Shown piece after piece: positions 1 to 11,227 of a stretch of 11,227 nucleotides of DNA. The notes under the pieces were generated by a model. That model saw only the letters and a list, made by a program, of their open reading frames with translations, was not told the origin of the DNA and did not search any database. The DNA comes from an uncultured bacterium (lineage in GTDB: Bacteria; Abyssobacteria; SURF-5): contig CAZEBC010000132.1 in NCBI GenBank assembly GCA_964510165.1, positions 1 to 11,227 on the forward strand, given 5' to 3'. Within the stretch, counting starts at the first letter, position 1, and each line of letters starts with the position of its first letter. The position numbers were made by a program, and so were the translations under genes.

Positions 1-70
1 TAATATTGTGTCCAAAGCAAGGGGAACAGCGCGGCTTAACAGGCTTGGGGCTGGACATGCACCGAAAGCG

Positions 71-595
71 TCATTTTACGAAGTTCAAATCGAGGTTCAT
101 TTCGGCGGCCAGACGCAGGAGATCATCCTTGACGGTGGCGATCGATGTGGTCGCCGGGACATTTGCCTCCAGAATCAGGTCAAACAGGGAAGCGCCGGAC
201 AGGGGAGCGCTGGTAACCCGGGTATCCAGGGTCAGGATGTTCACATTGTGGTGATGCAGAAGAGAGACAACCTTCTGGACAATTCCCGGATGGTCCATGG
301 AGATTATCTCAAGCTTCAAAGGGAGGCCTGCCTGTCGCGGAACAGCGGCCGGGTCATCCGCCTCGTGAAGAGAGACCTCAAACCCCGTCGCCCTGAGTTT
401 GTCCAAATCGCGAGTGATCGCACTCAGTTGCTCCGAACTGCATGAAAAGAGAGTCATGACAGAGAATCGTCCTCCGAGGGCAGCCATGCGGCTGTCTTCA
501 ATGTTTGCTCCTCGCTCGAAGAGGAAAGTCGAGACATCGTCCGCGATTCCGGGGCGATCCCTTCCCACCAGGAATAATATCCTATATTCCTTCAT
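71..595 (-). CDS. gcvR: GcvR-like double ACT-domain protein (glycine cleavage regulator family)
   Basis: 174 aa with two ACT starts (GRDRPGI...NIEDSRM and MDHPGIV...NILTLDT). Last gene of the gcv cluster; its ATG overlaps the lipB stop (ATGA, 592-595). Confidence 0.8.
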   Translation of the reverse strand: MKEYRILFLVGRDRPGIADDVSTFLFERGANIEDSRMAALGGRFSVMTLFSCSSEQLSAITRDLDKLRATGFEVSLHEADDPAAVPRQAGLPLKLEIISMDHPGIVQKVVSLLHHHNVNILTLDTRVTSAPLSGASLFDLILEANVPATTSIATVKDDLLRLAAEMNLDLNFVK

Positions 596-1311
596 CTGGC
601 CGTCCCCTGGTAAGATAATACCATTTCAAACTCCGATCTCTTCAATGGAACAATTTGTACTTCGAAGACTCTTTCGAGTTGACGCAAGAGAGCCTCCTTC
701 ACATTATCCAAAGGCAATTCCCGCGACAATTCTTGCTGCATTGAAGTCATGCTTGCTCCCTTGAGTCCACACGGATCAACCCACTCAAACGGTTCCAGCG
801 AAACATTCGCGTTCAGTGCGAGGCCGTGAAACGTGATCCCGTGGCGAATTGCCACGCCGATGCTTCCCAGTTTTCTCCCGCCTGCCCAGACTCCTCTGTT
901 CAAGCTGTTCCGTTCCGCTGGAATACCCCACTCCCCCGCCACACCAATCATGGCCTCTTCTAGACCGGAGATGTACTCGTCGGCGCTCAGTCCGGCCTTC
1001 GCCAGGCATATGATGGGATATACGACCAACTGGCCGGGTCCGTGAAAAGTGACGCTGCCCCCTCGCTCCGTTTGCATGACGGCAATTCCCGATTCTTCGA
1101 GAAAGCGTTCCGTGACCTTAATGCTCTCTCGGCCGCCCCTTCGACCGAGCGTGAATACGGGATGATGCTGCACTGAAATGACAACGTCTGAATCGAGCTC
1201 CCCACTGAATCTCGCGGCAACAAGGCTGTGCTGAAGATTCCACGTCGCCAGGTAGTCCATAACCGGCAACTCGATCAGCCGCCAGTTTTTCGTTTTCGAC
1301 GAAACAGCCAT
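592..1311 (-). CDS. lipB: Lipoyl(octanoyl) transferase LipB
   Basis: LipB motifs HHPVFTLGRR, RGGSVTFHGPGQLVVYPI, KLGSIGV, HGLALN and catalytic PCG; located in the gcv cluster. Confidence 0.95.
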   Translation of the reverse strand: MAVSSKTKNWRLIELPVMDYLATWNLQHSLVAARFSGELDSDVVISVQHHPVFTLGRRGGRESIKVTERFLEESGIAVMQTERGGSVTFHGPGQLVVYPIICLAKAGLSADEYISGLEEAMIGVAGEWGIPAERNSLNRGVWAGGRKLGSIGVAIRHGITFHGLALNANVSLEPFEWVDPCGLKGASMTSMQQELSRELPLDNVKEALLRQLERVFEVQIVPLKRSEFEMVLSYQGTAR

Positions 1312-1338
1312 GCTCTTCTGACGCCCTCGGTCGCCCGG

Positions 1339-2796
1339 TTACCCTGTGAGACACGGATGCCGTGCGGCTCCGGTCTCATCCAGTCTCCTGACCTTGCTTC
1401 TGTCAGGCGCGGTGCGAAGCGCCTCCAGGCCCGACTCCGCCTCGCCTGCAATGGTTTTGCAGACCTCGATGAAAAGGTCTATCTCTTCTTTGGATTCGGT
1501 CTCGGTAGGTTCTACCATGATTGCGCCGCTCACCACCAATGGAAAGTAAACCGTCGGCGGATGAAATCCATAATCAATGAGGCGTTTTGCTATTTCAAGG
1601 GTTGTGATCTTATGCTGCCTCTGCAATTTGTCCGAGAACACGCACTCATGCATGCAGGGGCGATCATAGGGAAGATGAAACACGTCTTTCAACCTGGCCC
1701 TGATGTAATTGGCGTTCAGGACAGCAAGCTGGCTGGCCTTCTTCAGGTTTTCGGCGCCCATGCTGAGGATGTACGCATACGCTCTTATCATGACGCCGAA
1801 GTTTCCATAAAATGAGTGGATTCTTCCGATGGAGTCCGGATTCTCATAGGAAAGAGAGTACTTGCCGCCGCCCTCCGTTACGCGAGGGACAGGCAAGAAC
1901 TTCTCAAGGTGTTTCTTCACGCACACGGGGCCGGAGCCTGGGCCGCCTCCTCCATGCGGGGTGGAGAACGTCTTGTGAAGGTTGAGATGTTGAACGTCCA
2001 CCCCGATGTCTCCCATCCGAACAATACCCATCACCGCGTTCATGTTTGCGCCGTCGCCGTAAACGAGCCCGCCCTTCGCGTGCACAATCCTGGCAATTTC
2101 GATGATGTTCTCTTCAAACAGGCCGAGCGTGTTCGGATTGGTGATCATTATGCCCGCCGTTTCTTCATCCATGACCTCGGCAACTGCTTCCGGAGAGAGA
2201 ACCCCCCGTTCATTCGACCTCACCGGCACCGGTTGATACCCGCACAGTGCGGCGCTCGCCGGGTTTGTGCCGTGTGCGGTATCCGGCACAATGATTTTGG
2301 AGCGAAAAGTGCCGTTGCTCTTGTGAAACGCGTTGATGATGAGCATTCCGGTGAGTTCCCCGTGGGCTCCAGCGGCGGGTTGGAGCGAGACTGCGTCCAT
2401 CCCGGTGATCTCGGCTAATAACCGTTCGAGATTGAACATCAACCTCAGCATGCCTTGTGAGAGCGACGCCGGAAGTAAGGGATGCGCGCCGGCGAGTCCC
2501 GGATGGGCCGCCAGCTTCTCGTTGAGTTTCGGGTTGTACTTCATGGTGCAGGAGCCCAATGGATACATTCCGGTATCGACACCGAAGTTCCATTGCGATA
2601 GCCGCACATAGTGGCGCACGACGTCGAGTTCGCTCAAATCCGGAAAATCCGGGCCGCCACCCTCGATACTCTTGTCCAAAGGGAACGAGTCTACGTCGCT
2701 GACGGGGAGACTCATACCGCTGCGTCCCTTTTTCCCCTTCTCCCAGAGCAGTGGTTCGTTAAAGATCAAGCCCGTGGCGCCAGGAAATTCCGTCAT
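1339..2796 (-). CDS. gcvPB: Glycine dehydrogenase (decarboxylating) P-protein subunit 2
   Basis: PLGSCTMKYNP, QPAAGAHGE, AHGTNPASA and PLP-lysine motif LNLHKTFSTPHGGGGPG. Start placed at ATG 2796 (GGAGG RBS 7 nt upstream, ATGA overlap with the gcvPA stop) rather than 2856. Confidence 0.96.
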   Translation of the reverse strand: MTEFPGATGLIFNEPLLWEKGKKGRSGMSLPVSDVDSFPLDKSIEGGGPDFPDLSELDVVRHYVRLSQWNFGVDTGMYPLGSCTMKYNPKLNEKLAAHPGLAGAHPLLPASLSQGMLRLMFNLERLLAEITGMDAVSLQPAAGAHGELTGMLIINAFHKSNGTFRSKIIVPDTAHGTNPASAALCGYQPVPVRSNERGVLSPEAVAEVMDEETAGIMITNPNTLGLFEENIIEIARIVHAKGGLVYGDGANMNAVMGIVRMGDIGVDVQHLNLHKTFSTPHGGGGPGSGPVCVKKHLEKFLPVPRVTEGGGKYSLSYENPDSIGRIHSFYGNFGVMIRAYAYILSMGAENLKKASQLAVLNANYIRARLKDVFHLPYDRPCMHECVFSDKLQRQHKITTLEIAKRLIDYGFHPPTVYFPLVVSGAIMVEPTETESKEEIDLFIEVCKTIAGEAESGLEALRTAPDRSKVRRLDETGAARHPCLTG

Positions 2797-4112
2797 TGTT
2801 GAACCTCCCTCACGAGGGCATCCATGTCTTTCCTGGTCTTTGCTTCGGTAACGCACAGCAGGTGTTGGCCGGCAAGCTCGGGATAATAGGCATCCAACGG
2901 AAGGCCGGCCAATATGTTCTTTTCAAGCAGTCTTTCATACGTGGAACGCGCATGCTTCGGATACTTCACCACGAATTCATTGAACGTCGCGGATGGGAAT
3001 GTGATGGTACATCCCGCCTTTTTCAGCGCGCTCTTGAGATATTCGGTCTTATCGTAATTGAGTCGGGCCAGTTTCCGAATGCCCGTCCCGCCGAGAGAAG
3101 CCATGTAAATCGCGGATGCCAGGGCGCAGAGACTATGATTGGTACAGATATTAGAGGTCGCTTTTTCTCTCCGGATGTGCTGTTCCCTTGTGGCGAGCGT
3201 CAGCACGAAACCGCGCTTTCCGTTTACATCCGTGGTTTGGCCCACCAGGCGTCCCGGCATGTTTCTGACGTAGTTCATCCTGGTGGCGAACATCCCCAGC
3301 CCCGGCCCTCCGAACCATTGCGGGATACCAAGGCTCTGGCCTTCTCCGCAGGCTATGTCGGCGCCCTGTTCGCCCGGGTTCTTGAGAATCCCGTACGCCA
3401 ACGGCTCCGTGAATGCGACCACACAGAGCGCGCCTTTCCCATGGGCTTCTTGTGCGACTTCGTCAACACGCTCGACGATGCCGAAAAAATTCGGTGACTG
3501 CACGGCAATTGCGGCCAATCCATCATGCACGTCAATGTTTGAAAAGTCTGTGCGACCTTCAGTGTCATACACTAGCTCCACCACTTCATATCCAGTGGGC
3601 GCAAAATAAGTCTTGATCACCTGCCGATAAAAAGGATGAACCAGGCGTGACACGGCCACCTTCCCGCGCTTGGTCACGCGAATGGCCATAAGCAACGCTT
3701 CCGCCAGGGCGGACGCGCCGTCGTACAGCGACGCATTGGCCACTTCCATCCCCAGGAGCCGGGCCGTCAGCGTCTGGTACTCATAAATGGCCTGGAGCGT
3801 GCCCTGGCTGACTTCCGGCTGGTAAGGAGTGTACGCGGTCGCAAACTCGGAGCGCCCTGCAAGGAAGGATACGGTCTCCGGAATATGGTGCTCGTAGCTG
3901 CCCGCCCCTATGAATACCTTGCAGCCGTGATGTGCAGAAAGGGCTGCCATGTGTTCCTTGAGTTCCCATTCCGTCATCGGGCCGGGGAGATTCAATTCCC
4001 CTGGATACCGACAACCTTTGGGCACAGTGGAGAAAAGCTCGTCAAGGCTGGCCGCGCCAACCGTCTTGAGCATCGAAGCAATATCTTCATCGGTATGAGG
4101 AAGGAAGCGCAT
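2793..4112 (-). CDS. gcvPA: Glycine dehydrogenase (decarboxylating) P-protein subunit 1
   Basis: TAYTPYQPEVSQGTLQAIYEYQ, ANASLYDGASALAEA, GGPGLG, TREQHIRREKATSNICTN. Its ATG directly abuts the gcvH TAG. Confidence 0.96.
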   Translation of the reverse strand: MRFLPHTDEDIASMLKTVGAASLDELFSTVPKGCRYPGELNLPGPMTEWELKEHMAALSAHHGCKVFIGAGSYEHHIPETVSFLAGRSEFATAYTPYQPEVSQGTLQAIYEYQTLTARLLGMEVANASLYDGASALAEALLMAIRVTKRGKVAVSRLVHPFYRQVIKTYFAPTGYEVVELVYDTEGRTDFSNIDVHDGLAAIAVQSPNFFGIVERVDEVAQEAHGKGALCVVAFTEPLAYGILKNPGEQGADIACGEGQSLGIPQWFGGPGLGMFATRMNYVRNMPGRLVGQTTDVNGKRGFVLTLATREQHIRREKATSNICTNHSLCALASAIYMASLGGTGIRKLARLNYDKTEYLKSALKKAGCTITFPSATFNEFVVKYPKHARSTYERLLEKNILAGLPLDAYYPELAGQHLLCVTEAKTRKDMDALVREVQQ

Positions 4113-4517
4113 CTAATCTGTTCCTTTCAGCTTTTCCAGATAATCCTTCCTGTTCAACAAGGAGTCCAACTCAGCCGGGTTATGCGGCTTCACCATGATT
4201 ATCCATCCGTCACCGTAAGGGTCCTTGTTTATCAGGTCGGGCGAGTCCTCCAGAGTCTCGTTCACCGCCACAACCTCTCCGCCGAGCGGCATAAACAGTT
4301 CGGAAACGGCCTTCGTTGATTCCACGGTTCCGAACTCGTCGCCTGGATTGAAGGTCGTGCCAACTTCGGGCATGCCCACAAACGTGATGTCGCCCAGTTG
4401 ATCCTGGGCATAATCGGAAATGCCTATTCGCACCTTGTCACCCTCGCGCCTCGCCCACTCGTGGTCTTCGGAATATCGGATGTCATCGGGAAAATTCAGC
4501 TCGCCTAGCTCCTTCAT
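4113..4517 (-). CDS. gcvH: Glycine cleavage system H protein
   Basis: HEW, GISDYAQDQLGDI, lipoyl-lysine motif VESTKAVSEL, INKDPYGDGW. Start at ATG 4517 with a GAAGGAG RBS 6 nt upstream (134 aa). Confidence 0.96.
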   Translation of the reverse strand: MKELGELNFPDDIRYSEDHEWARREGDKVRIGISDYAQDQLGDITFVGMPEVGTTFNPGDEFGTVESTKAVSELFMPLGGEVVAVNETLEDSPDLINKDPYGDGWIIMVKPHNPAELDSLLNRKDYLEKLKGTD

Positions 4518-4540
4518 CTCATGCTCCTTCTCTCTAGGTC

Positions 4541-4573
4541 GGGCGCAGCCACGCTGAGGCGTGGGGCCCCTAC
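4541..4573 (-). repeat. Degenerate GTAG-type REP-like hairpin overlapping the gcvT-glyA stop codon
   Basis: Minus strand reads GTAGGGGCCCCACGC-CTCA-GCGTGGCTGCGCCC, with a perfect 6-bp CCACGC/GCGTGG stem. It starts GTAGGGGC and ends GCGCCC, like the REP at 10232-10257. Confidence 0.45.
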
Positions 4574-7215
4574 AGTAACTCGTGAAGTTTTTGCAGTATA
4601 TCCGCGTACTCATCTCCGCGGAAACAGAACTGAATCTCGCAGAACGGCTTTCGCAGTTCCTTGATGCGCTCCTTCACATTTTTTCCTCTGATAATGACAT
4701 CGCTCATCAGTTCTGCCATGCGCCTGAACTGTTCCTCGCCCATGCCGAACCGGGTCATCTCCGCGACTCCGAGCCTCAACCCGCCCGCCGCCGTAAACCC
4801 CTCATCCTCAGGGGTGGCCTGGTAGTTGCAGATGATGTTATTGGTTTCGAGACGCCTTGCCATCTCGGGCCCACGCGAATACCCGACGTTCACAACCACC
4901 TGGTGTGTTTCGGTATAGCTGATAGACGGGTCCCCGGCCACATCCAGCCCGCACTCTTTCAGCGCCCTCGCGAACGCCTTCGCGTTGGCGATCACTTTCG
5001 GCTGATACTCGTCCTTGAAATGGTTCATCTCGAAAGCGGCCATCAGCAAACCAAGCAGGGTTCCGAGGTGATGATTCGAGACCGAGCCGGGGAATGTCCG
5101 GCGGAGCACTGCCTCCCAGAGTTCGTACCGCACGTCATGCTCCACGAAACGCGAGCCTATAACCCCGCGCTGCGTGCCGAAAAACGTCTTGTGCGTGGAG
5201 CCGGTCACGAAGTCCGCCCCTTCCTCAAATGGTGTCTGGAAGTGCGGCCCTAGCAGCCCGAGCACATGCGCTGCATCGTACATCACAATGCAATTGATTC
5301 CTTGGGCGTCGAGAAAACGCCGAATCTCGGCCACCGGCTCCTTGTGCAGGAACATGCTCTTGCCGAAGACGATCAAATCAGGGCGGTAATCGTCAATCAA
5401 CTCCAGCGTGGCTGGCAGGTCGATCTTGTAACGGTTTTCCTCAAGCACGGGGAAATTCTCGACCGCCGCCCGCTCGGTCAAAAGATCGCGCGCGACGTAG
5501 TCGCGCAACGCGCCCATCGGCTGAGCGCTCAGGTGGCCGCCCTTGCCTATATGGTGGTTCAACACGCGGGCGATGCGCAGCGGCTCACGTTTGCGGTCGG
5601 CGAAGTTGATGTAGTCCACCAACGCGCTGAAGACCGCCATGTTGGCCGTCTGGCCGCTGATCAGGCGCATCTCGACTTCCTCACATCCGAGAAATTTTCT
5701 GAATTCCTCGTCCAGCAGCCGCTCGACCTCCGCGATGAAATCGGTGCCCTGATAGTAGAAGACCTCGGCCTCGTAGAGCGCCTCCATCTTCTTGTGCTCG
5801 GCATAACGGAATGCCGGGTCCATCACCGACAACAGCCTCGCCATGGGCGAGGCCGTCATCTCCGAAGGAATGAGGTTGACGCACTCCCGCTGACGCCATA
5901 CCGTGTTCTCGAGCGCCTTTTCCAGGAGGAGGTGCACCTTGGCGGACACTTGGCTTGGCGCGGATTTTCCCTCCGGCAATTCCTGACCATAAACGATCGG
6001 GCGGGCGTAGGGCGGCGCCTCTCCCCGAAGATGGAACGGAACCACGATGGCCTCGACCTTCTTGCCGCGTATTTCGACCGTCACCCGCTCGTCCTCGATG
6101 ATGTCGCTATCAAGCAGAGCGAGTGCGATTGCGCGCAGCTTGTGTTGGTCGCCCGGAACGGAAGTTAAACCCTCTCCTTCAAACACCCACATCGGCACGG
6201 TCGTGCCGCTGGTCACATAGCCGACATGTCGCCCGTCTTTGAAGACCTTGTCGCCCGCCCGGGCCACTCCACGGCCGAGCATCGTGATCGGTCGAATCAT
6301 TCGCGGCAAATCGGCGATCAGCGAGTAATCGCCGTACACGATCCTCTTGAACGCCTCTTGCTGACGTTCCAGCGCTGCCCGACCGACATAATTTCCCTTT
6401 AGCGGAGAAAAGCTTACGGCGAATTTGGCCAGTGGAACTGCAAAGATGGGAATTTCCTTTCCCTCGGAGTCCTTGCCCAACTCATGCCCATACAGCGGCA
6501 GGCCCGCTTCCAGCCGGAGTGTGTCGCGTGCGCCGAGTCCGCATGGGGTAGCGCCCTCGGCGACAAAAGTGTCCCATAGACAAGACGCGCTCTCGCGCTT
6601 GACAAAAAGCTCGAACCGGATTGGTTCGCCTGTATAGCCAGTGCGTCCCACCATCACGTCTGCATCGCAGATTCTGACGGTGCTCAATTCATTCGGCAAC
6701 GGTTCGGGCAGCCGACCGGACTGGATGACCTTGAGGAGTATCTCTCGCGACACCGACCCCTGCAGCGCCAACATCGCCAATTCTTCCGTATGATCAGCCA
6801 GCTCCACATCGCTGAACTGCTTCAATAATGACCGAAGATGCTCCAGGTCCTTTCCGCGATTGTCAGCGTTGACGACGAGCAGATATTCATCCTCCACAAA
6901 GCGGTACAGGTATGCGTCGTCGACGGCGCCCCCTGTCTCGTTCGGAATGAAGGTATACTGAGCTTGCTCAAGATCAAGCGCCTGGGCGTTGTTGCTCAGC
7001 GCGTGTTGAAGGAAGCGGATCGCTCCGGGGCCGCGTATAGTCATTCGGCCCATATGCGAAATGTCGAAGACGCCCGCTCGCTTGCGTGTCGCGAGGTGTT
7101 CGCCCACAATGCCGGCGGGGTAATAAAGCGGCATCTCCCAGCCGACGAAGTCAACCATCTTCGCACCGAGCGCAACGTGCCGGTCATGGCAGACAGTTCG
7201 TCGAAGCTCTTTCAT
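4570..7215 (-). CDS. gcvT: Bifunctional fusion: N-terminal aminomethyltransferase GcvT plus C-terminal serine hydroxymethyltransferase (GlyA, archaeal-type motifs)
   Basis: One uninterrupted ORF of ~881 aa (alternative ATG at 7224 gives 884 aa). GcvT half: FVGWEMP, FDISHMG, GGAVDD, RTGYTGE, GLGARDTLRLEAGLPLYGHEL, VGYVTSG. SHMT half (from ~5950): NLIPSE, RYAE, YYQG, GGHLS, YDAAHVLGL, STHKTFFG (PLP Lys at 5188-5190), GLRLG. Confidence 0.93.
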   Translation of the reverse strand: MKELRRTVCHDRHVALGAKMVDFVGWEMPLYYPAGIVGEHLATRKRAGVFDISHMGRMTIRGPGAIRFLQHALSNNAQALDLEQAQYTFIPNETGGAVDDAYLYRFVEDEYLLVVNADNRGKDLEHLRSLLKQFSDVELADHTEELAMLALQGSVSREILLKVIQSGRLPEPLPNELSTVRICDADVMVGRTGYTGEPIRFELFVKRESASCLWDTFVAEGATPCGLGARDTLRLEAGLPLYGHELGKDSEGKEIPIFAVPLAKFAVSFSPLKGNYVGRAALERQQEAFKRIVYGDYSLIADLPRMIRPITMLGRGVARAGDKVFKDGRHVGYVTSGTTVPMWVFEGEGLTSVPGDQHKLRAIALALLDSDIIEDERVTVEIRGKKVEAIVVPFHLRGEAPPYARPIVYGQELPEGKSAPSQVSAKVHLLLEKALENTVWRQRECVNLIPSEMTASPMARLLSVMDPAFRYAEHKKMEALYEAEVFYYQGTDFIAEVERLLDEEFRKFLGCEEVEMRLISGQTANMAVFSALVDYINFADRKREPLRIARVLNHHIGKGGHLSAQPMGALRDYVARDLLTERAAVENFPVLEENRYKIDLPATLELIDDYRPDLIVFGKSMFLHKEPVAEIRRFLDAQGINCIVMYDAAHVLGLLGPHFQTPFEEGADFVTGSTHKTFFGTQRGVIGSRFVEHDVRYELWEAVLRRTFPGSVSNHHLGTLLGLLMAAFEMNHFKDEYQPKVIANAKAFARALKECGLDVAGDPSISYTETHQVVVNVGYSRGPEMARRLETNNIICNYQATPEDEGFTAAGGLRLGVAEMTRFGMGEEQFRRMAELMSDVIIRGKNVKERIKELRKPFCEIQFCFRGDEYADILQKLHELL

Positions 7216-7730
7216 CTCTTGCATACTCTCTGGATGATTGCGTTAACGACGGCGTCAATGCCGTCAGTTTCAGAAATCTCTATCACTATGTCAGCGTAGT
7301 TCCTGTAAAGAGGCAGCCGATCCTCAAAAAGCGCTCTCAAACCTTTCTTCTTAAGTCCGACGATACCACGCGTGTCTTTGTTCGCAAGGCGGTTCTCTAT
7401 GCTCCCGAATGACGCATGCAAGAATACGATTGCTGAGTGTTCTCTCAAAAACTGCATCGCAGCCCTTGAATAGATTACACTGCCGCCGGGGGAAATGATG
7501 CTCCTCTCGACTTTGCCCAGGCTCAGGACCGCTCGTTCCTCGATTTCCAGAAACTTCTCGTCGCCGGAATTGTCGAGTGTCTCTTGCAGCTTCTGCCCTG
7601 TCGCTCGTTCGATTATTTCATCAATCTCGACAAATGCATAATCGAGTCGCCTGGCCAGTTCCCGGCCTATCACGCTCTTGCCGACGCCGGCCATTCCAAT
7701 CAGGGTTATGTTCGTACTCATAGCTTTCAT
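7212..7730 (-). CDS. Shikimate-kinase-fold P-loop kinase (AroK-like; substrate uncertain)
   Basis: NITLIGMAGVGKS Walker A, DEIIE, ISPGGSVIY and C-terminal RLPLY; ~170 aa. Start at ATG 7730 or 7721. Its stop overlaps the gcvT ATG (ATGA, 7212-7215). Confidence 0.85.
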   Translation of the reverse strand: MKAMSTNITLIGMAGVGKSVIGRELARRLDYAFVEIDEIIERATGQKLQETLDNSGDEKFLEIEERAVLSLGKVERSIISPGGSVIYSRAAMQFLREHSAIVFLHASFGSIENRLANKDTRGIVGLKKKGLRALFEDRLPLYRNYADIVIEISETDGIDAVVNAIIQRVCKR

Positions 7731-7751
7731 GTGCCAAATTCCATATGCGGC

Positions 7752-7781
7752 AGTATACATCAAGAAGTTTTGCCGTATCAA
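7752..7781 (-). promoter_or_regulatory. Putative sigma70 promoter of the kinase-gcv operon
   Basis: Minus strand TTGATA (7781-7776), 18-nt spacer, TATACT (7757-7752), about 20 nt upstream of ATG 7730. Confidence 0.5.
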
Positions 7782-7784
7782 CTG

Positions 7785-7811
7785 CGCCGCCAGTTGCAAT
7801 AATTGGCGGCG
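7785..7811. promoter_or_regulatory. Inverted repeat, candidate operator between divergent promoters
   Basis: CGCCGCCAGTT-GCAAT-AATTGGCGGCG: 11-bp arms with 10/11 matched and a 5-nt spacer. Overlaps the -35 of the + strand promoter. Confidence 0.5.
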
Positions 7812-7822
7812 ACAGATAGAAT
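7794..7822 (+). promoter_or_regulatory. Putative sigma70 promoter of the molybdopterin oxidoreductase gene
   Basis: TTGCAA (7794-7799), 17-nt spacer, TAGAAT (7817-7822). RBS AGAGGA at 7875-7880 precedes ATG 7888. Confidence 0.55.
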
Positions 7823-7887
7823 CCTTTTGGAATCGTCGTACAACACTGCGCGAATCGCTATGCCAATGGTAACAAGAGGAATGAAAT

Positions 7888-10125
7888 ATGAATGACTGGA
7901 AGAAAACCACATGCGTGCTCTGTGCGGTGAACTGCGGTTTGGAGGTCCAGACCGAGGGAAACCGAATTGCCAAGGTTAGGCCCGACAAGGACTGTCCTCG
8001 CAGCCAGGGATATGCGTGCCGCAAAGGGCTATCTATCGCCTATTTTCAGAGCCACGCCCAGAGGCTTACCCATCCGCTCAAGAGGGTCGGAGACAAGTTC
8101 GAGAGAATCTCATGGCAACAGGCCACAAGCGAGATCGCCGCGAGGTTAAAGGAGATTGTAGCGACTCACGGCCCCAAATCGTTCGCGTACATGGGAGGTG
8201 GCGGACAGGGCTGCCATCTTGAGGCCGCGTTCGGCGTTCGGCTCTTGAGGGCGCTTGGTTCGCGCTACCATTACTCCGCGCTCGCGCAGGAACTGACCGG
8301 CTTCTTCTATGTTCAGGGCGAAGCCCTCGGGCGTCAATACCTCCATGTGTTCCCCGACGTCGAGCGCACCGACGTCCTTGTCCTTTGGGGCAGCAACGCA
8401 TGGCGCAGCCACGGGATGAACCGTGCCCGGCCCGAGCTCATGCGCTTGAGCAAAGACCCGAACAAGCTTCTGATTGTGATTGACCCGTGCAAGACCGAGA
8501 CCGCAATGCGCGCAAACATTCATCTCGCTCCGCGGCCCGGCACCGACGCGCTGCTCCTTAAGGCGATGATCGCCATGATTCTTGACGACCGCATATATGA
8601 CGAGGAGTATGTGGAGGAATCTACGACTGGCTTTAGCGAAATTCTGCCGCTTTTCTCAAATTTCGACGTGAGCGAGGCGCTCAAAGTATGCGAGCTTGAT
8701 GAGCGCGAGGTGCGCGAGGTGGTCCACCTGCTCGCGGCCAATCGGTGCAGCTTCCGCTCCGACCTCGGCCTGCTCATGGGACGCAGCAGCACCATGAATT
8801 CGTATCTCGAGATGATTCTGATCAATCTGCTCGGGAACATTGGAAAACCCGGAGGCAACGTCTTCCTCGGACACCTTGTCCCACTCGGCTCACACACGCC
8901 CATCGAAGACCCCGCCAACTGGCGGACCGTCGAGGCCGGCTTCCCCGCGATCATGGGCGTGTACCCGCCAAATGTCGTGCCCGAGGAAATCCTGAGCGAC
9001 AAACCGGAGCGTTTGCGCGCGGTCCTTGTCAGCGGCTCGAACCCGCTCATCACGTACGCGGACACACACGCATACGAGGAAGCCTTCAAGAAACTGGACC
9101 TGCTGGTGACCGTCGAAGTCGCGATGACCGAGACCGCCCAGTCGTCCCACTACGTCCTGCCCGCCAAGTCCGCATACGAGAAATGGGATGCGTCGTTCTT
9201 CTCCTGGAAATATCCCGAATACTATTTCCATTTGCGACGGCCCGTGTGCGAATGGCTCGGCGAACCCAGGGAGGAAGCCGAGATATACACCGACCTCGCG
9301 GAGGCGCTCAGCGTGATTCCCGCCTATCCGCGAGAGTTAGAGGAACTCGCCTCCGGCGACCGCATGGCGTACGGAATGGCATTGATGGACTACCTCGCCG
9401 AGAATCCGAAGAGCGCCGATATGCTGCCGTTCATCGTAGCGAAGACCCTCGGCAAGGCGCTCGGCTCGCCCGCATTGTCCCTGGTATGGGCGATTTTGAA
9501 CCGGTATTGCCAAACTGCCGGCCCCAAGCTTGAACGCGCGGGGTATACCCTCTCCCCCGCTCTCGGCGACGAGCTTTTCGAGAAGATGCGCACTACCCCG
9601 GGCGATATGCTGCTCGGCGTGCAAGATATGGAAAACAATCTCACCGAGAACATCAAGACCTACGATAGAAAGGTGCATCTGCACATACCCGCGTTGGACG
9701 CATGGCTTGCCGAAATCAACCCGACAGATGAATCGAAGGCTCTGGAAACTCCGGGCTACCCGATGACGCTCGTTGCGGGCGAGCGCACCGACTTCAACGC
9801 CAACTCTCTCATGCGCGACCCCGACTGGACCGCCGGCACGCGCGCCTGCACGATGAAGGTTCATCCCGAAGACGCGAAAAGCCTCGGGCTTGAGACCGGC
9901 ATGACGGCGCGCATCGAGACCGAGGCAGGTTCGCTCGATGTGTCGGTCGAGGTCAGCGGAGTGCCGCGACGCGGAATGGTTATCATTCCCCACGGTTTCG
10001 GCATGGAGTACCGCGGGCACACTGACGGCGTGAACGTGAACTGTCTCACTCCCGCTCGCAACCGCGACCGTCTCGCGGCCACACCCTTGCACCGGTTCGT
10101 GCCATGCAAAGTCTCGAGAATATGA
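7888..10125 (+). CDS. Molybdopterin-dependent oxidoreductase, DMSO reductase family catalytic subunit (cytoplasmic, 4Fe-4S)
   Basis: N-terminal CVLCAVNC...CRKG Fe-S motif, WGSN, VIDPCKTETA, PRPGTDA, GSNP, MTETA..SHYVLPA, and a C-terminal dinucleotide-binding domain (HPEDA..LGL, IPHGFG, NVN.LT). No Tat signal. Confidence 0.92.
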   Translation: MNDWKKTTCVLCAVNCGLEVQTEGNRIAKVRPDKDCPRSQGYACRKGLSIAYFQSHAQRLTHPLKRVGDKFERISWQQATSEIAARLKEIVATHGPKSFAYMGGGGQGCHLEAAFGVRLLRALGSRYHYSALAQELTGFFYVQGEALGRQYLHVFPDVERTDVLVLWGSNAWRSHGMNRARPELMRLSKDPNKLLIVIDPCKTETAMRANIHLAPRPGTDALLLKAMIAMILDDRIYDEEYVEESTTGFSEILPLFSNFDVSEALKVCELDEREVREVVHLLAANRCSFRSDLGLLMGRSSTMNSYLEMILINLLGNIGKPGGNVFLGHLVPLGSHTPIEDPANWRTVEAGFPAIMGVYPPNVVPEEILSDKPERLRAVLVSGSNPLITYADTHAYEEAFKKLDLLVTVEVAMTETAQSSHYVLPAKSAYEKWDASFFSWKYPEYYFHLRRPVCEWLGEPREEAEIYTDLAEALSVIPAYPRELEELASGDRMAYGMALMDYLAENPKSADMLPFIVAKTLGKALGSPALSLVWAILNRYCQTAGPKLERAGYTLSPALGDELFEKMRTTPGDMLLGVQDMENNLTENIKTYDRKVHLHIPALDAWLAEINPTDESKALETPGYPMTLVAGERTDFNANSLMRDPDWTAGTRACTMKVHPEDAKSLGLETGMTARIETEAGSLDVSVEVSGVPRRGMVIIPHGFGMEYRGHTDGVNVNCLTPARNRDRLAATPLHRFVPCKVSRI

Positions 10126-10181
10126 TTACCTGCAAAAATGAGCGTCATAAGGACTCAGTTGCCGAATCCCCTTTTCGAGGT

Positions 10182-10269
10182 TGTCCCGTAATTTGGTATT
10201 TGGTCGTAGGGCCGGCCCTGTGTGGCCGCCCGGGCGCCCACATAGGGGCGCCCCTACAATTACGGGACA
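10182..10269. mobile_element. Putative MITE-like element bounded by perfect 12-bp terminal inverted repeats
   Basis: TGTCCCGTAATT (10182-10193) and AATTACGGGACA (10258-10269) are exact reverse complements and enclose a REP doublet. No transposase in the window. Confidence 0.5.
10206..10257. repeat. Inverted doublet of GTAG-family REP sequences (REPIN-like)
   Basis: GTAGGGCCGGCCCTGTGTGGCCGCCC (10206-10231) and the reverse complement of 10232-10257 (GTAGGGGCGCCCCTATGTGGGCGCCC) are 22/26 identical. Each is GTAG followed by a GC hairpin. Confidence 0.75.
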
Positions 10270-10270
10270 G

Positions 10271-10309
10271 TCCCCCTTCCCCCCTTTCTAAGAGGGGGAG
10301 TAAGGGGGA
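10271..10309. repeat. C-tract/G-tract hairpin repeat (CCCCCTT...AAGGGGG type)
   Basis: TCCCCCTT (10271-10278) pairs with AAGGGGGA (10302-10309); inner CCCCCT (10280-10285) pairs with AGGGGG (10293-10298). Confidence 0.55.
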
Positions 10310-10360
10310 TTTCGAATGAACCGACATCACGTGATTACAACGTAGTACTGGGAAGCGCAC

Positions 10361-10861
10361 ATGACCGACGCCAAAAAGAAAATCGAAGCTCTGCGAAAGG
10401 ACCTGTTCCTGGCAACCGCCAACCGGGGCCTGGCCTACACCGCCATCTTGAGGGAATTGCGGAAGGAACTCGGAGACGAACGAGCGAGCGAAATCTTCAA
10501 GCGCGCCATATACAACCACGGCGCAAATGTTGCCAGACTCTTCAATCCCCCCAACACGCTCGCCGAGTTCAAGGACTGGCTGCTGGATTTCTTCCCCGAT
10601 GAAGGCGCGATGAACGAGCCCGAGGTCATCCGGTGCGACGAACACGAACTGGCCGTGAGGCTTCCCCGCTGCCCCCTCAAGGAGGGCTGGCGAATGTTCG
10701 GCCTCTCTGATGAGGAAGTCGCAGACATGTGCCGTCACGCCGACGCCTTCGACCACGGCTTTTTCGGCAGTTTCTTCGACTACGAGATGGAACTCTGGGC
10801 GAACCGGCCGGACGACGCCTGTGTGCTGCACTTCTGGCCAAAGGGGCACTCCCGGGTGTAG
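10361..10861 (+). CDS. L-2-amino-thiazoline-4-carboxylic acid hydrolase-like (ATC_hydrolase / V4R-like) small protein, function unknown
   Basis: 166 aa with a helical N-terminus (LRKELGDERASEIFKRAIYNHG), then RCPLKEGW..FG...MC..AD.FD and a C-terminal C-x-L-x-F, a pattern typical of this family. GGAAG RBS upstream. Confidence 0.7.
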   Translation: MTDAKKKIEALRKDLFLATANRGLAYTAILRELRKELGDERASEIFKRAIYNHGANVARLFNPPNTLAEFKDWLLDFFPDEGAMNEPEVIRCDEHELAVRLPRCPLKEGWRMFGLSDEEVADMCRHADAFDHGFFGSFFDYEMELWANRPDDACVLHFWPKGHSRV

Positions 10862-10927
10862 GCGCGAATACATTCGCACATGCATGCCCTCCGATAATCT
10901 CTCCAATGTGCGGACAGCTCCATCTCT

Positions 10928-10964
10928 ATCTGTAACCCATCTGTAACCCCTGCCGCGATACAAT
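10928..10964 (+). promoter_or_regulatory. Tandem 11-bp direct repeat (OmpR/PhoB-family box-like) followed by a -10 element
   Basis: Two exact copies of ATCTGTAACCC (10928-10938, 10939-10949), then TACAAT at 10959-10964. Confidence 0.5.
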
Positions 10965-11081
10965 TAGGGAAAAGAGGGAGAGGAATTATTGCCTGCGGCG
11001 CCCGCGTTTGCCTGCGAAACCGTGCGAGGTCCGACTCGCAATTCAGGTGGTTCCTTTCCTTCAAAACCACAGGGGGGAATC

Positions 11082-11227
11082 ATGGCGGTCTTCAAAATCT
11101 TCGAGGGACTACACAAACCCGAAATTGCGGACATTTTCGGCCTGGGCATCATTCACCCGATTGAGCAAGGAGCGGTGGTACTCCAAAAGGGCGATATCGG
11201 CCGTGAGATGTTCGTCATACTGACGGG
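11082..11227 (+). CDS. Cyclic-nucleotide-binding domain (Crp/Fnr-type) protein, 5' part only, truncated by the window end
   Basis: Not in the ORF track. My translation from ATG 11082 is MAVFKIFEGLHKPEIADIFGLGIIHPIEQGAVVLQKGDIGREMFVILTG, matching the cNMP-domain start (IFxGL, GxxxxxxGDxGxxMFVIxxG). Preceded by an AGGGGGG RBS-like tract. Confidence 0.8.
   Translation, partial: MAVFKIFEGLHKPEIADIFGLGIIHPIEQGAVVLQKGDIGREMFVILT

Follow-up and report, generated by a model that had tools for sequence, protein, structure and literature searches.

A widespread single-chain fusion of the glycine cleavage T protein with an archaeal-type serine hydroxymethyltransferase domain, predicted to couple glycine and serine metabolism

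A single gene of an uncultured bacterium of the Abyssobacteria (GTDB lineage SURF-5) encodes, in one uninterrupted chain of 884 residues, a T protein (aminomethyltransferase, GcvT) of the glycine cleavage system (GCS) followed by a domain with the fold of serine hydroxymethyltransferase (SHMT). The gene lies at 4570..7224 on the minus strand of a stretch of 11,227 nucleotides (contig CAZEBC010000132.1 of assembly GCA_964510165.1, positions 1 to 11,227), referred to below as the window, and the same architecture recurs across many bacterial phyla. From the conservation of both active sites and from the surrounding genes, we consider it reasonably probable that the product is a bifunctional enzyme, which, together with the remaining proteins of the GCS, would couple the cleavage or synthesis of glycine to serine.

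One reading frame for a T protein and an SHMT-fold domain

The open reading frame (ORF) contains no internal stop and ends with a stop codon at 4570-4572. Pfam recognizes three domains in it, namely GCV_T at residues 12-253 (E 5.6e-74), GCV_T_C at residues 364-396, and SHMT at residues 436-839 (E 3.8e-36), the last of which covers profile positions 10-398 of 399. The chain can be divided, all on the minus strand, into a T-protein domain identified by Pfam, NCBIfam, and fold (residues 1-410; 5995..7224), an interdomain linker, VYGQELPEGKSAPSQVSA (residues 411-428; 5941..5994), and an archaeal-type SHMT-fold domain (residues 429-884; 4573..5940), whose lysine for pyridoxal 5'-phosphate (PLP), K679, is encoded at 5188-5190 within the motif THKT (5185-5196). 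A GcvT–SHMT fusion in a single ORF had been proposed in the first-pass annotation of the window, and the intact frame bears this proposal out, as does the Pfam scan for GCV_T, GCV_T_C, and SHMT that it had suggested, with all three domains found. The motif GGAVDD and the segment GLGARDTLRLEAG, which it had assigned to the T part, lie there at 6916-6933 and at residues 229-241, respectively; the linker is found where it had been placed, at about 5945-5990; and the SHMT that it had described as full, with its PLP lysine, is covered almost from end to end by the Pfam profile and possesses K679. The range originally given for the ORF, 4570..7215, needs amending at one end, as 7215 marks the second methionine, M4, and the listed ORF runs to 7224; either start is possible, since the consensus of 78 homologues likewise has a methionine at the position of M4.

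By its scores, its predicted fold, and its association with the genes of the H and P proteins, the N-terminal domain is a member of the GcvT family. It exceeds the Pfam thresholds for PF01571 (249.1 bits vs 25.6) and PF08669 (39 vs 25.9), as well as the curated NCBIfam cut-offs for GcvT (PRK00389, 314.9 vs 300; TIGR00528, 248.8 vs 235.85). The best solved matches by sequence are 1woo, followed by 1yx2, and a Foldseek search with the predicted model gave TM-scores normalized to the target (TMt) of 0.88-0.90 to 1wos, 1yx2, and 3a8k. The fold is common to solved T proteins such as that of Thermotoga maritima (1woo) and that of the T-H complex of Escherichia coli (3a8i), with TMt values of 0.83-0.90, and their genes, like the fused one, stand in an operon with those of the H and P proteins; the fused protein differs from them by its approximately 470 extra C-terminal residues, which form the SHMT domain. 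Residues D102, D103, N119, and R233 are invariant in all 78 full-length fused sequences that were aligned; we take them to include the catalytic aspartate, equated by its motif with D97 of E. coli (the title of entry 3a8k describes a D97N mutant), and the conserved asparagine and arginine of the folate cavity. The domain is set apart from solved T proteins by two insertions, one at about residues 296-309 and one at about 346-366. It is the only GCV_T match in the 97%-complete genome of the organism itself.

The continuity of the gene is supported by independent data. The junction is covered by Logan contigs from four DNA sequencing runs belonging to three studies of freshwater and hot-spring metagenomes, although the best-matching run may be the source sample itself, and single contigs bridge it at 5300-6397, 5608-6170, and 5902-6328 with no indel listed; coverage over the junction had been put forward as a check in the first-pass annotation, and the contigs cross it cleanly. 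In a collection of 5.8 billion proteins, all 120 of the best listed homologues, which are 69-99% identical to the fused protein, have 876-887 residues and this three-domain composition by Pfam. When one genome per species was scanned, at least 600 stretches matched, and among the 80 loci inspected in detail, the GcvT part is directly upstream of the SHMT part and collinear with it without exception: 70 are full-length in one frame, five are in frame and ended by a contig edge, four are frameshifted at differing places, and one carries an in-frame TAG. Three loci that seemed to hold cleanly split genes proved to have frameshifts or an in-frame TAG in a collinear fused gene; the TAG, which lies in the T domain of a metagenome-assembled genome of the Deltaproteobacteria (L068:1012-1014), could be an error, the mark of a pseudogene, or a recoded codon. 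The five disrupted loci are what would speak for an artefact of assembly or sequencing that joined two neighboring genes, but they break at different places, and two of them are records labeled MFD, which we take to be long-read assemblies. Set against the indel-free contigs, the 70 full-length loci, and the uniform length and domain content of the 120 homologues from many sources, the chance of an artefact is negligible, and it is ruled out for practical purposes.

The fusion is widespread rather than rare and is common in anaerobic bacteria. Relatives of its SHMT domain were found in at least 596 species genomes, in what amounts to the survey of architectures that had been recommended for this gene. 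By their record titles, the 80 inspected loci belong to Desulfobacterales, Syntrophobacteraceae, and other Thermodesulfobacteriota; to Pirellulales and other Planctomycetota, Acidobacteriota, Thermoleophilia, Nitrospiraceae, and Spirochaetaceae; to Chloroflexota, Gemmatimonadota, Armatimonadetes, Xanthomonadales, and Chromatiales; and in many cases to Oscillospiraceae and Clostridiales, including the cultured Brotocaccenecus cirricatena. Five of 11 genomes from the small phylum to which the window belongs have the fusion, and among the matches listed, 'Candidatus Abyssubacteria' are the nearest relatives that bear a name. In the class of one Desulfobacterales carrier (Desulfobacterota), 37 of 121 evenly sampled genomes contain the fusion, comprising 35 single full-length genes, one within a frame of 975 residues, and one lying on two contig ends. 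At least 14 clusters of the ESM Atlas show the GcvT–SHMT architecture, and divergence among fusions reaches 34-40% identity. The SHMT half is absent from the names that these proteins bear: the 120 listed homologues are called GcvT or aminomethyltransferase in their sources, with one 'hypothetical protein', never SHMT, and the ESM Atlas cluster names follow the same labeling, just as had been anticipated of automated pipelines. Another kind of glycine cleavage fusion was encountered in the same Atlas (rank 25), where 52 proteins of about 741 residues, clustered under the name 'Multifunctional fusion protein' and commonest in Bacillota, join the T protein with a P subunit (GDC-P + GCV_T + GCV_T_C).

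Identity, origin, and active site of the SHMT domain

The C-terminal domain belongs to the SHMT family by Pfam (PF00464, 125 bits vs 27), in which the genome's own glyA, on another contig, scores 547.6 bits. On the NCBIfam model of GlyA, PRK00011, it attains 241.4 bits and does not reach the cut-off of 335. The best solved matches are the structures of the SHMT of Methanococcus jannaschii, 4uqv and 4bhd (E 2.8e-52; TMt 0.88), and TMt to solved SHMTs in general is 0.83-0.88. The fused domain has in common with this archaeal enzyme the motif FPGxxSNHH, for which the bacterial form is FPGxQGGP, and the PLP-lysine motif STHKTF; the archaeal protein differs in standing alone, and the fused clade sits on a long stem. 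Bacterial housekeeping GlyA is of the same family and fold and has the same catalytic residues, at approximately 29% identity. The earlier description of this half as a full SHMT stands with respect to family, fold, and PLP lysine, and has to be modified in that the domain differs from an ordinary GlyA. Next among the solved matches comes the L-threonine transaldolase 7k34, which aligns over residues 177-455 of the domain only and scores 108 bits vs 181 for the M. jannaschii enzyme; identity as an ObiH-like L-threonine transaldolase was rejected on this partial alignment, confined to the C-terminal 280 residues, and on the lower score.

A quick maximum-likelihood tree of 114 SHMT-fold sequences (LG+G4, rooted on the genome's own GlyA, with Shimodaira–Hasegawa-like approximate likelihood ratio (SH-aLRT) support only) unites all 81 fused SHMT domains and four shorter proteins in one clade (SH-aLRT 100, stem 0.56), and the sister groups of this clade are standalone proteins; the finer branching order is unsure, as several long branches were flagged. 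Three insertions, one following the YAE motif, one following the SGQxAN helix, and one preceding the VxNFPV strand, characterize the clade and are not found in its standalone relatives. They are retained in P0138 and P0143, the two of the four shorter proteins that were examined, and all four are probably secondary splits or truncated gene calls. Judged from this phylogeny, the fused copies have a single origin, and the SHMT domain is a separate paralogue rather than an ordinary GlyA, archaeal-type in the sense of its closest solved relative. Standalone SHMT-fold proteins of 436-518 residues occur in the sampled Desulfobacterota class as well (G086:C12, G115:C3, G046:C28, G059:C23, and G103:C274); these five share 42-44% identity with the fused domain and reach about 185-207 Pfam bits, and in two of the genomes such a protein seems to be the sole SHMT apart from the fusion.

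The 78 full-length fused sequences show no variation at Y474, E476, Y491, S523, G562-G563-H564, D650, H653, S676-T677-H678-K679, N800, or R817, and at least 90% of them have Y490 and R686. These positions align to the motifs YAEG, YYGG, SGxxAN, GGHL, D-AH, THK, N, and R of the genome's own GlyA, and we take their E. coli equivalents to be Y55, E57, Y64/Y65, H126, D200, H203, K229, R235, N347, and R363. The set presumably includes residues of the folate-dependent reaction and of carboxylate binding (the equivalents of E57, Y64/Y65, N347, and R363), E57 being the glutamate tied to the former, and the residues that we regard as defining membership in the family, that is, the Schiff-base lysine in T-H-K, the aspartate to the pyridine N1, and the stacking histidine, are invariant throughout (T677, H678, K679, D650, H653, and H564). 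With the T-domain residues described above, both catalytic sites look intact, and the invariance of catalytic and folate-reaction residues in 78 sequences argues for a working SHMT of the folate type over a pure scaffold.

The hosts of the fusion nearly always possess a canonical glyA as well (455-578 Pfam bits), which is present in the organism's own genome, in all four of the other carriers of its phylum, in all five carriers examined from five other lineages, and in 34 of the 37 carriers of the sampled class. One of the remaining three has glyA fragments at contig ends, and two have only a standalone archaeal-type SHMT of about 200 bits. Since the genome keeps its canonical glyA elsewhere, the fusion would add a second, dedicated SHMT. 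The near-universal presence of the housekeeping enzyme could also be taken to mean that the SHMT-fold domain is catalytically idle and serves as a dimerization or regulatory module of the T protein, for example, as a sensor of glycine or serine. One fused protein lends itself to this explanation: P0142 (889 residues, a 50%-identity representative) has SAHH in place of STHK and a degraded GGHLS motif, and has kept the fused architecture without the PLP lysine. Its SHMT domain is probably inactive, and with the lysine and the GGH motif missing, SHMT catalysis seems to have been abandoned in at least one lineage. For the family at large, however, the invariance of PLP-binding and catalytic residues in 78 aligned sequences, the window's among them, is not what one would expect of a scaffold, and we regard an idle domain as highly improbable.

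A predicted glycine–serine enzyme and its competing explanations

In the bifunctional enzyme that we favor, the T domain would convert the aminomethyl group on the lipoylated H protein and tetrahydrofolate (THF) into 5,10-methylene-THF and ammonia, and the C-terminal domain, acting as a PLP- and folate-dependent SHMT, would interconvert glycine plus methylene-THF and serine plus THF. Together with the P (GcvPA/PB), H, and L proteins, the net reaction would be 2 Gly + NAD+ + H2O ⇌ Ser + CO2 + NH3 + NADH, run separately from the housekeeping GlyA that the cell keeps. That the SHMT domain uses THF is assumed from the THF dependence of the T domain and from the bacterial nature of the hosts. By analogy with all SHMTs, the domain probably dimerizes, which would give a T2-SHMT2 particle in which the two domains are tethered at a fixed length and in a defined mutual position, and folate made at one site would probably serve the other, close by. 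If the enzyme runs from glycine to serine, methylene-THF from the T cavity would feed the SHMT site and THF would return; it is in this direction that a hand-over would pay, and it would curb the loss of the labile methylene-THF as formaldehyde, which the accessible part of one study describes as a substantial by-product of the GCS (PMC7227101).

The genomic context of the fusion is in keeping with glycine metabolism. A gcvH, gcvPA, or gcvPB gene lies in the flanks of 37 of the 80 loci (downstream in 21, upstream on the same strand in 10, and on the other strand in six), a figure that is a lower bound, as many of the loci are short. A survey of neighbors, in which all ORFs of the 80 loci were clustered and recurrent clusters were assigned by Pfam, identified Lpd in 11 loci, LplA in nine, LipA in four, and a class I aminotransferase in 11; no serine dehydratase, FolD, or Fhs emerged as a recurrent neighbor from this clustering. 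The five carriers of other lineages, too, have no strong GCV_T match besides the fused T domain. Two further loci illustrate the variety of the arrangement: at L094 (G093:C42:9000-24000), the fusion stands between a divergent lpd and a complete AsnC-gcvT-gcvH-gcvPA-gcvPB-lipB cluster, and at L095 (G082:C109:181000-195000), a second glyA of the bacterial type lies with lpd, divergently, beside AsnC-gcvT-H-PA-PB-lipB-lipA. A dedicated SHMT adjoining the glycine cleavage genes is therefore a recurring arrangement, reached by fusion or by neighborhood. The organism's own genome encodes the L protein, and a formate-THF ligase and an acetyl-CoA synthase on one contig; the part of the 'Ca. Abyssubacteria' paper available to us reports a complete Wood-Ljungdahl pathway and says nothing on glycine cleavage genes (PMC6121073).

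Directly downstream of the fusion in five of the 80 loci (L048:3548-4603, L064:7579-8643, L066:7507-8610, L076:7601-8650, and L084:7540-8589, titled Oscillospiraceae, Eubacteriales, Bacillota, or Clostridiales) lies an L-threonine 3-dehydrogenase (NF003808, 524.5 bits vs a cut-off of 380), which suggests a route from threonine through glycine to the GCS in these five Bacillota loci and hints at glycine catabolism there. The same neighbor could be enlisted for a different function of the fused protein, in which the SHMT-fold domain would be a folate-independent aldolase or transaldolase acting on threonine or other beta-hydroxy amino acids and would deliver glycine to the adjacent GCS. SHMTs show a side aldolase activity, the second-best solved match is an L-threonine transaldolase, and a homoserine kinase model of threonine synthesis is the best match, below its cut-off, of the gene that precedes the fusion in the window. 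Threonine dehydrogenase, however, already supplies glycine without an aldolase; the kinase neighbor recurs in only one of the 80 other loci; the transaldolase alignment leaves out the N-terminal YAE...YY region; and the 78 sequences vary little or not at all at the residues of the folate reaction (the equivalents of E57, Y64/Y65, and N347). On balance, such an aldolase appears improbable.

In the predicted bifunctional enzyme, the tether between the domains is nearly constant in length: 76 of the 78 sequences have 27-33 residues, with a median of 29, separating the conserved anchors 410 and 440. An AlphaFold2 model of the full-length protein, computed from the 78-row alignment, has a mean predicted local distance difference test score (pLDDT) of 93.7, with 77-83 in the linker, and a predicted TM-score (pTM) of 0.90, a value that, for a chain of two domains, points to confident placement of one relative to the other. 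In a Foldseek search, none of the solved structures spanned both halves, the best TM-score normalized to the query (TMq) being 0.44. When the domains were folded as separate chains, the interface score ipSAE was 0.52 (0.51-0.54 in three runs), as compared to 0.00 for the best control, with at least 95% of contacts agreeing between the three runs and partner pLDDT of at least 91. In calibration, 58 of 80 solved complexes and two of 110 mismatched pairs attained the mark for this score, and values up to 0.60 included seven of the 80 solved complexes and both passing mismatches, counts that are only approximate here, as our own alignment was supplied. The outcome lends weak support to docking of the T and SHMT domains. 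The fixed linker length, the pTM, and this weak pass all fit the channeling of methylene-THF and the scaffolding of T domains by an SHMT oligomer, both of which had been raised in the first-pass annotation and are plausible; true channeling we hold to be the minority outcome, even granting that the enzyme is bifunctional.

A looser coupling is conceivable, in which both domains are active in the same pathway and the fusion provides only equal amounts and co-localization, with methylene-THF diffusing freely between them. An unconserved linker sequence, the weakness of the docking result, the use of separate genes by some relatives (the second glyA and lpd, divergent from the GCS cluster, at L095), and the parallel course of the two reactions around methylene-THF in organisms with a Wood-Ljungdahl pathway would all be natural under this explanation. 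It does not readily account for a linker length that is nearly constant across phyla, for clade-specific insertions in both domains, for the pTM of the two-domain chain, or for the retention of the fusion from a single origin down to 34-40% identity, and on these grounds, we think it rather unlikely. The opposite extreme, a still tighter coupling, strikes us as a little less likely again: the fusion would be a serine synthase/cleavage module that holds a polyglutamyl folate as a quasi-prosthetic carrier swinging between the sites, so that glycine + aminomethyl-H-protein + H2O ⇌ serine + NH3 + reduced H-protein would proceed with no net draw on free folate. Such a bound carrier would explain the separate GlyA (and sometimes GcvT), the fixed linker length, and the insertions in both domains, and it would, if real, insulate the glycine/serine flux from the Wood-Ljungdahl and biosynthetic one-carbon pools.

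Several observations weigh against the bifunctional enzyme or against close coupling within it. The need for a second SHMT is unexplained in a cell that has canonical glyA, and the T domain is not always the sole one, as nine of the 37 carriers in the sampled class have a standalone gcvT as well and the cluster beside the fusion at L094 includes a gcvT of its own. On the side of the SHMT domain, there are the sub-threshold score on PRK00011, the probable loss of activity in P0142, and the question of the cofactor: THF is assumed, and the accessible portion of PMC3697235 reports that the archaeal SHMTs of M. jannaschii, M. marburgensis, and S. solfataricus use modified folates such as tetrahydromethanopterin (H4MPT). 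The linker itself (residues 411-428) is unconserved, with a top residue frequency of 0.18-0.38 across the 78 sequences, and the docking passes only weakly. In a Wood-Ljungdahl host such as this one, moreover, both domains may feed or draw on the same methylene-THF pool in parallel, whether serine and glycine are built from methylene-THF or oxidized; a hand-over would then not be needed, and the fusion would give only stoichiometry and proximity. An Fe-S L-serine dehydratase (SDH_alpha) was not found in the 97%-complete genome, and the sequencing runs that contain the stretch are DNA runs, with no RNA run listed. A search of the same genome for GRDB gave no match either, a result that carries no weight, as the control genomes were equally silent.

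Genomic surroundings and wider significance

In the window, the fusion is followed downstream, on the same strand, by gcvH, gcvPA, gcvPB, lipB, and a gene for a protein with two ACT domains, which agrees with the operon of H, PA, PB, and lipB described in the first-pass annotation, each of these four products scoring above its curated NCBIfam cut-off. The H protein gene, gcvH (4113..4517), matches Pfam GCV_H over residues 46-163 (144.6 bits) and NCBIfam GcvH; its start is likely the internal methionine 33 of the listed ORF 4113-4613, judging from the point at which the family match begins. The two P-protein subunits are encoded by gcvPA (2793..4112; 598 bits vs a GcvPA cut-off of 364) and gcvPB (1339..2796; 707 bits vs a GcvPB cut-off of 441, from residue 32), the latter likely starting at methionine 21 of its listed ORF and overlapping the stop of gcvPA. 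The octanoyl/lipoyl transferase for the H protein, lipB (592..1311), is recognized by Pfam LplA-B_cat and NCBIfam LipB (TIGR00214, 148.7 vs 83.55). The last gene of the operon (71-595, minus strand) encodes the ACT-ACT protein, which is weakly similar to GcvR (58 bits vs a cut-off of 267) and to the 'ACT domain-containing protein' PRK00194, and could be a small-molecule sensor for the operon. No Rfam family reaches its gathering score in the window, so that no glycine riboswitch is detected, and terminator-like sites, at 13 vs a shuffle mean of 11.2, are not enriched.

Upstream, the fusion is adjoined by a gene of the shikimate kinase family (Pfam SKI; 7212-7730, minus strand), whose best NCBIfam match by far is NF040667, the Desulfo-type homoserine kinase (157 bits vs a cut-off of 197), shikimate kinase models reaching 101 bits at most. 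This kinase was considered as a conserved partner and dismissed, as it recurs in one of the 80 loci only (L083, Dehalococcoidales, where it is again directly upstream) and the other 79 are without it. A sigma-70-like promoter match upstream of the kinase gene (7752..7781, minus strand) agrees with 10 of 12 hexamer positions and is a consensus match alone. Farther out lie a divergent molybdopterin oxidoreductase of 745 residues (7888-10125, plus strand), with an N-terminal 4Fe-4S domain, which is nearest to formate dehydrogenase alpha (238 bits vs 666) and falls below every curated cut-off, and an ORF of 272 residues (10145-10963, minus strand), which has no Pfam or NCBIfam match and may not be a gene. 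Among the other loci, the recurrent class I (aspartate-aminotransferase-like) PLP aminotransferase is directly upstream of the fusion in L031, L037, L042, L054, L060, and L058, and nearby in L020, L029, L030, L045, and L055, in several phyla; it passes no specific NCBIfam model.

The chemistry predicted here has a well-known counterpart. In plant mitochondria, glycine decarboxylase and SHMT convert two molecules of glycine to serine, CO2, and NH3, while THF shuttles between the T protein and SHMT; the net chemistry is the same, whereas the plant enzymes are separate proteins with a eukaryotic tetrameric SHMT, and the fusion is one polypeptide in anaerobic bacteria. Bifunctional folate enzymes with measured substrate channeling are exemplified by formiminotransferase-cyclodeaminase and dihydrofolate reductase-thymidylate synthase, which likewise carry two folate sites per chain between which a polyglutamyl folate may pass; their folds and reactions are unrelated to those predicted for the T-SHMT protein. 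Both component families and their textbook metabolic coupling are already known, and the architecture is visible in public domain annotations. What appear to be undescribed are how far the family extends, that it arose once from an archaeal-type SHMT, that it co-exists with GlyA, and that its tether is fixed. A search of the full-text literature, covering neither supplements nor subscription journals, found no description of a GcvT–SHMT fusion and no biochemical characterization of one, in line with the first-pass annotation, which knew of none, and the portions of PMC12674515 and PMC6121073 available to us do not mention it.

The GCS and SHMT constitute the core both of the photorespiratory conversion of glycine to serine and of the reductive glycine pathway, which is being engineered for the assimilation of formate and CO2. 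Whether methylene-THF passes directly from the T protein to SHMT is an old question, for which a natural, widespread single-chain T-SHMT protein offers a direct test object, as well as a part that pathway engineers could use as it stands. Genes that are named only 'GcvT' hide a second, predicted SHMT activity in at least 596 species genomes, with consequences for how metabolism is reconstructed in sulfate reducers, syntrophs, Planctomycetota, Thermoleophilia, and the Oscillospiraceae of the gut.

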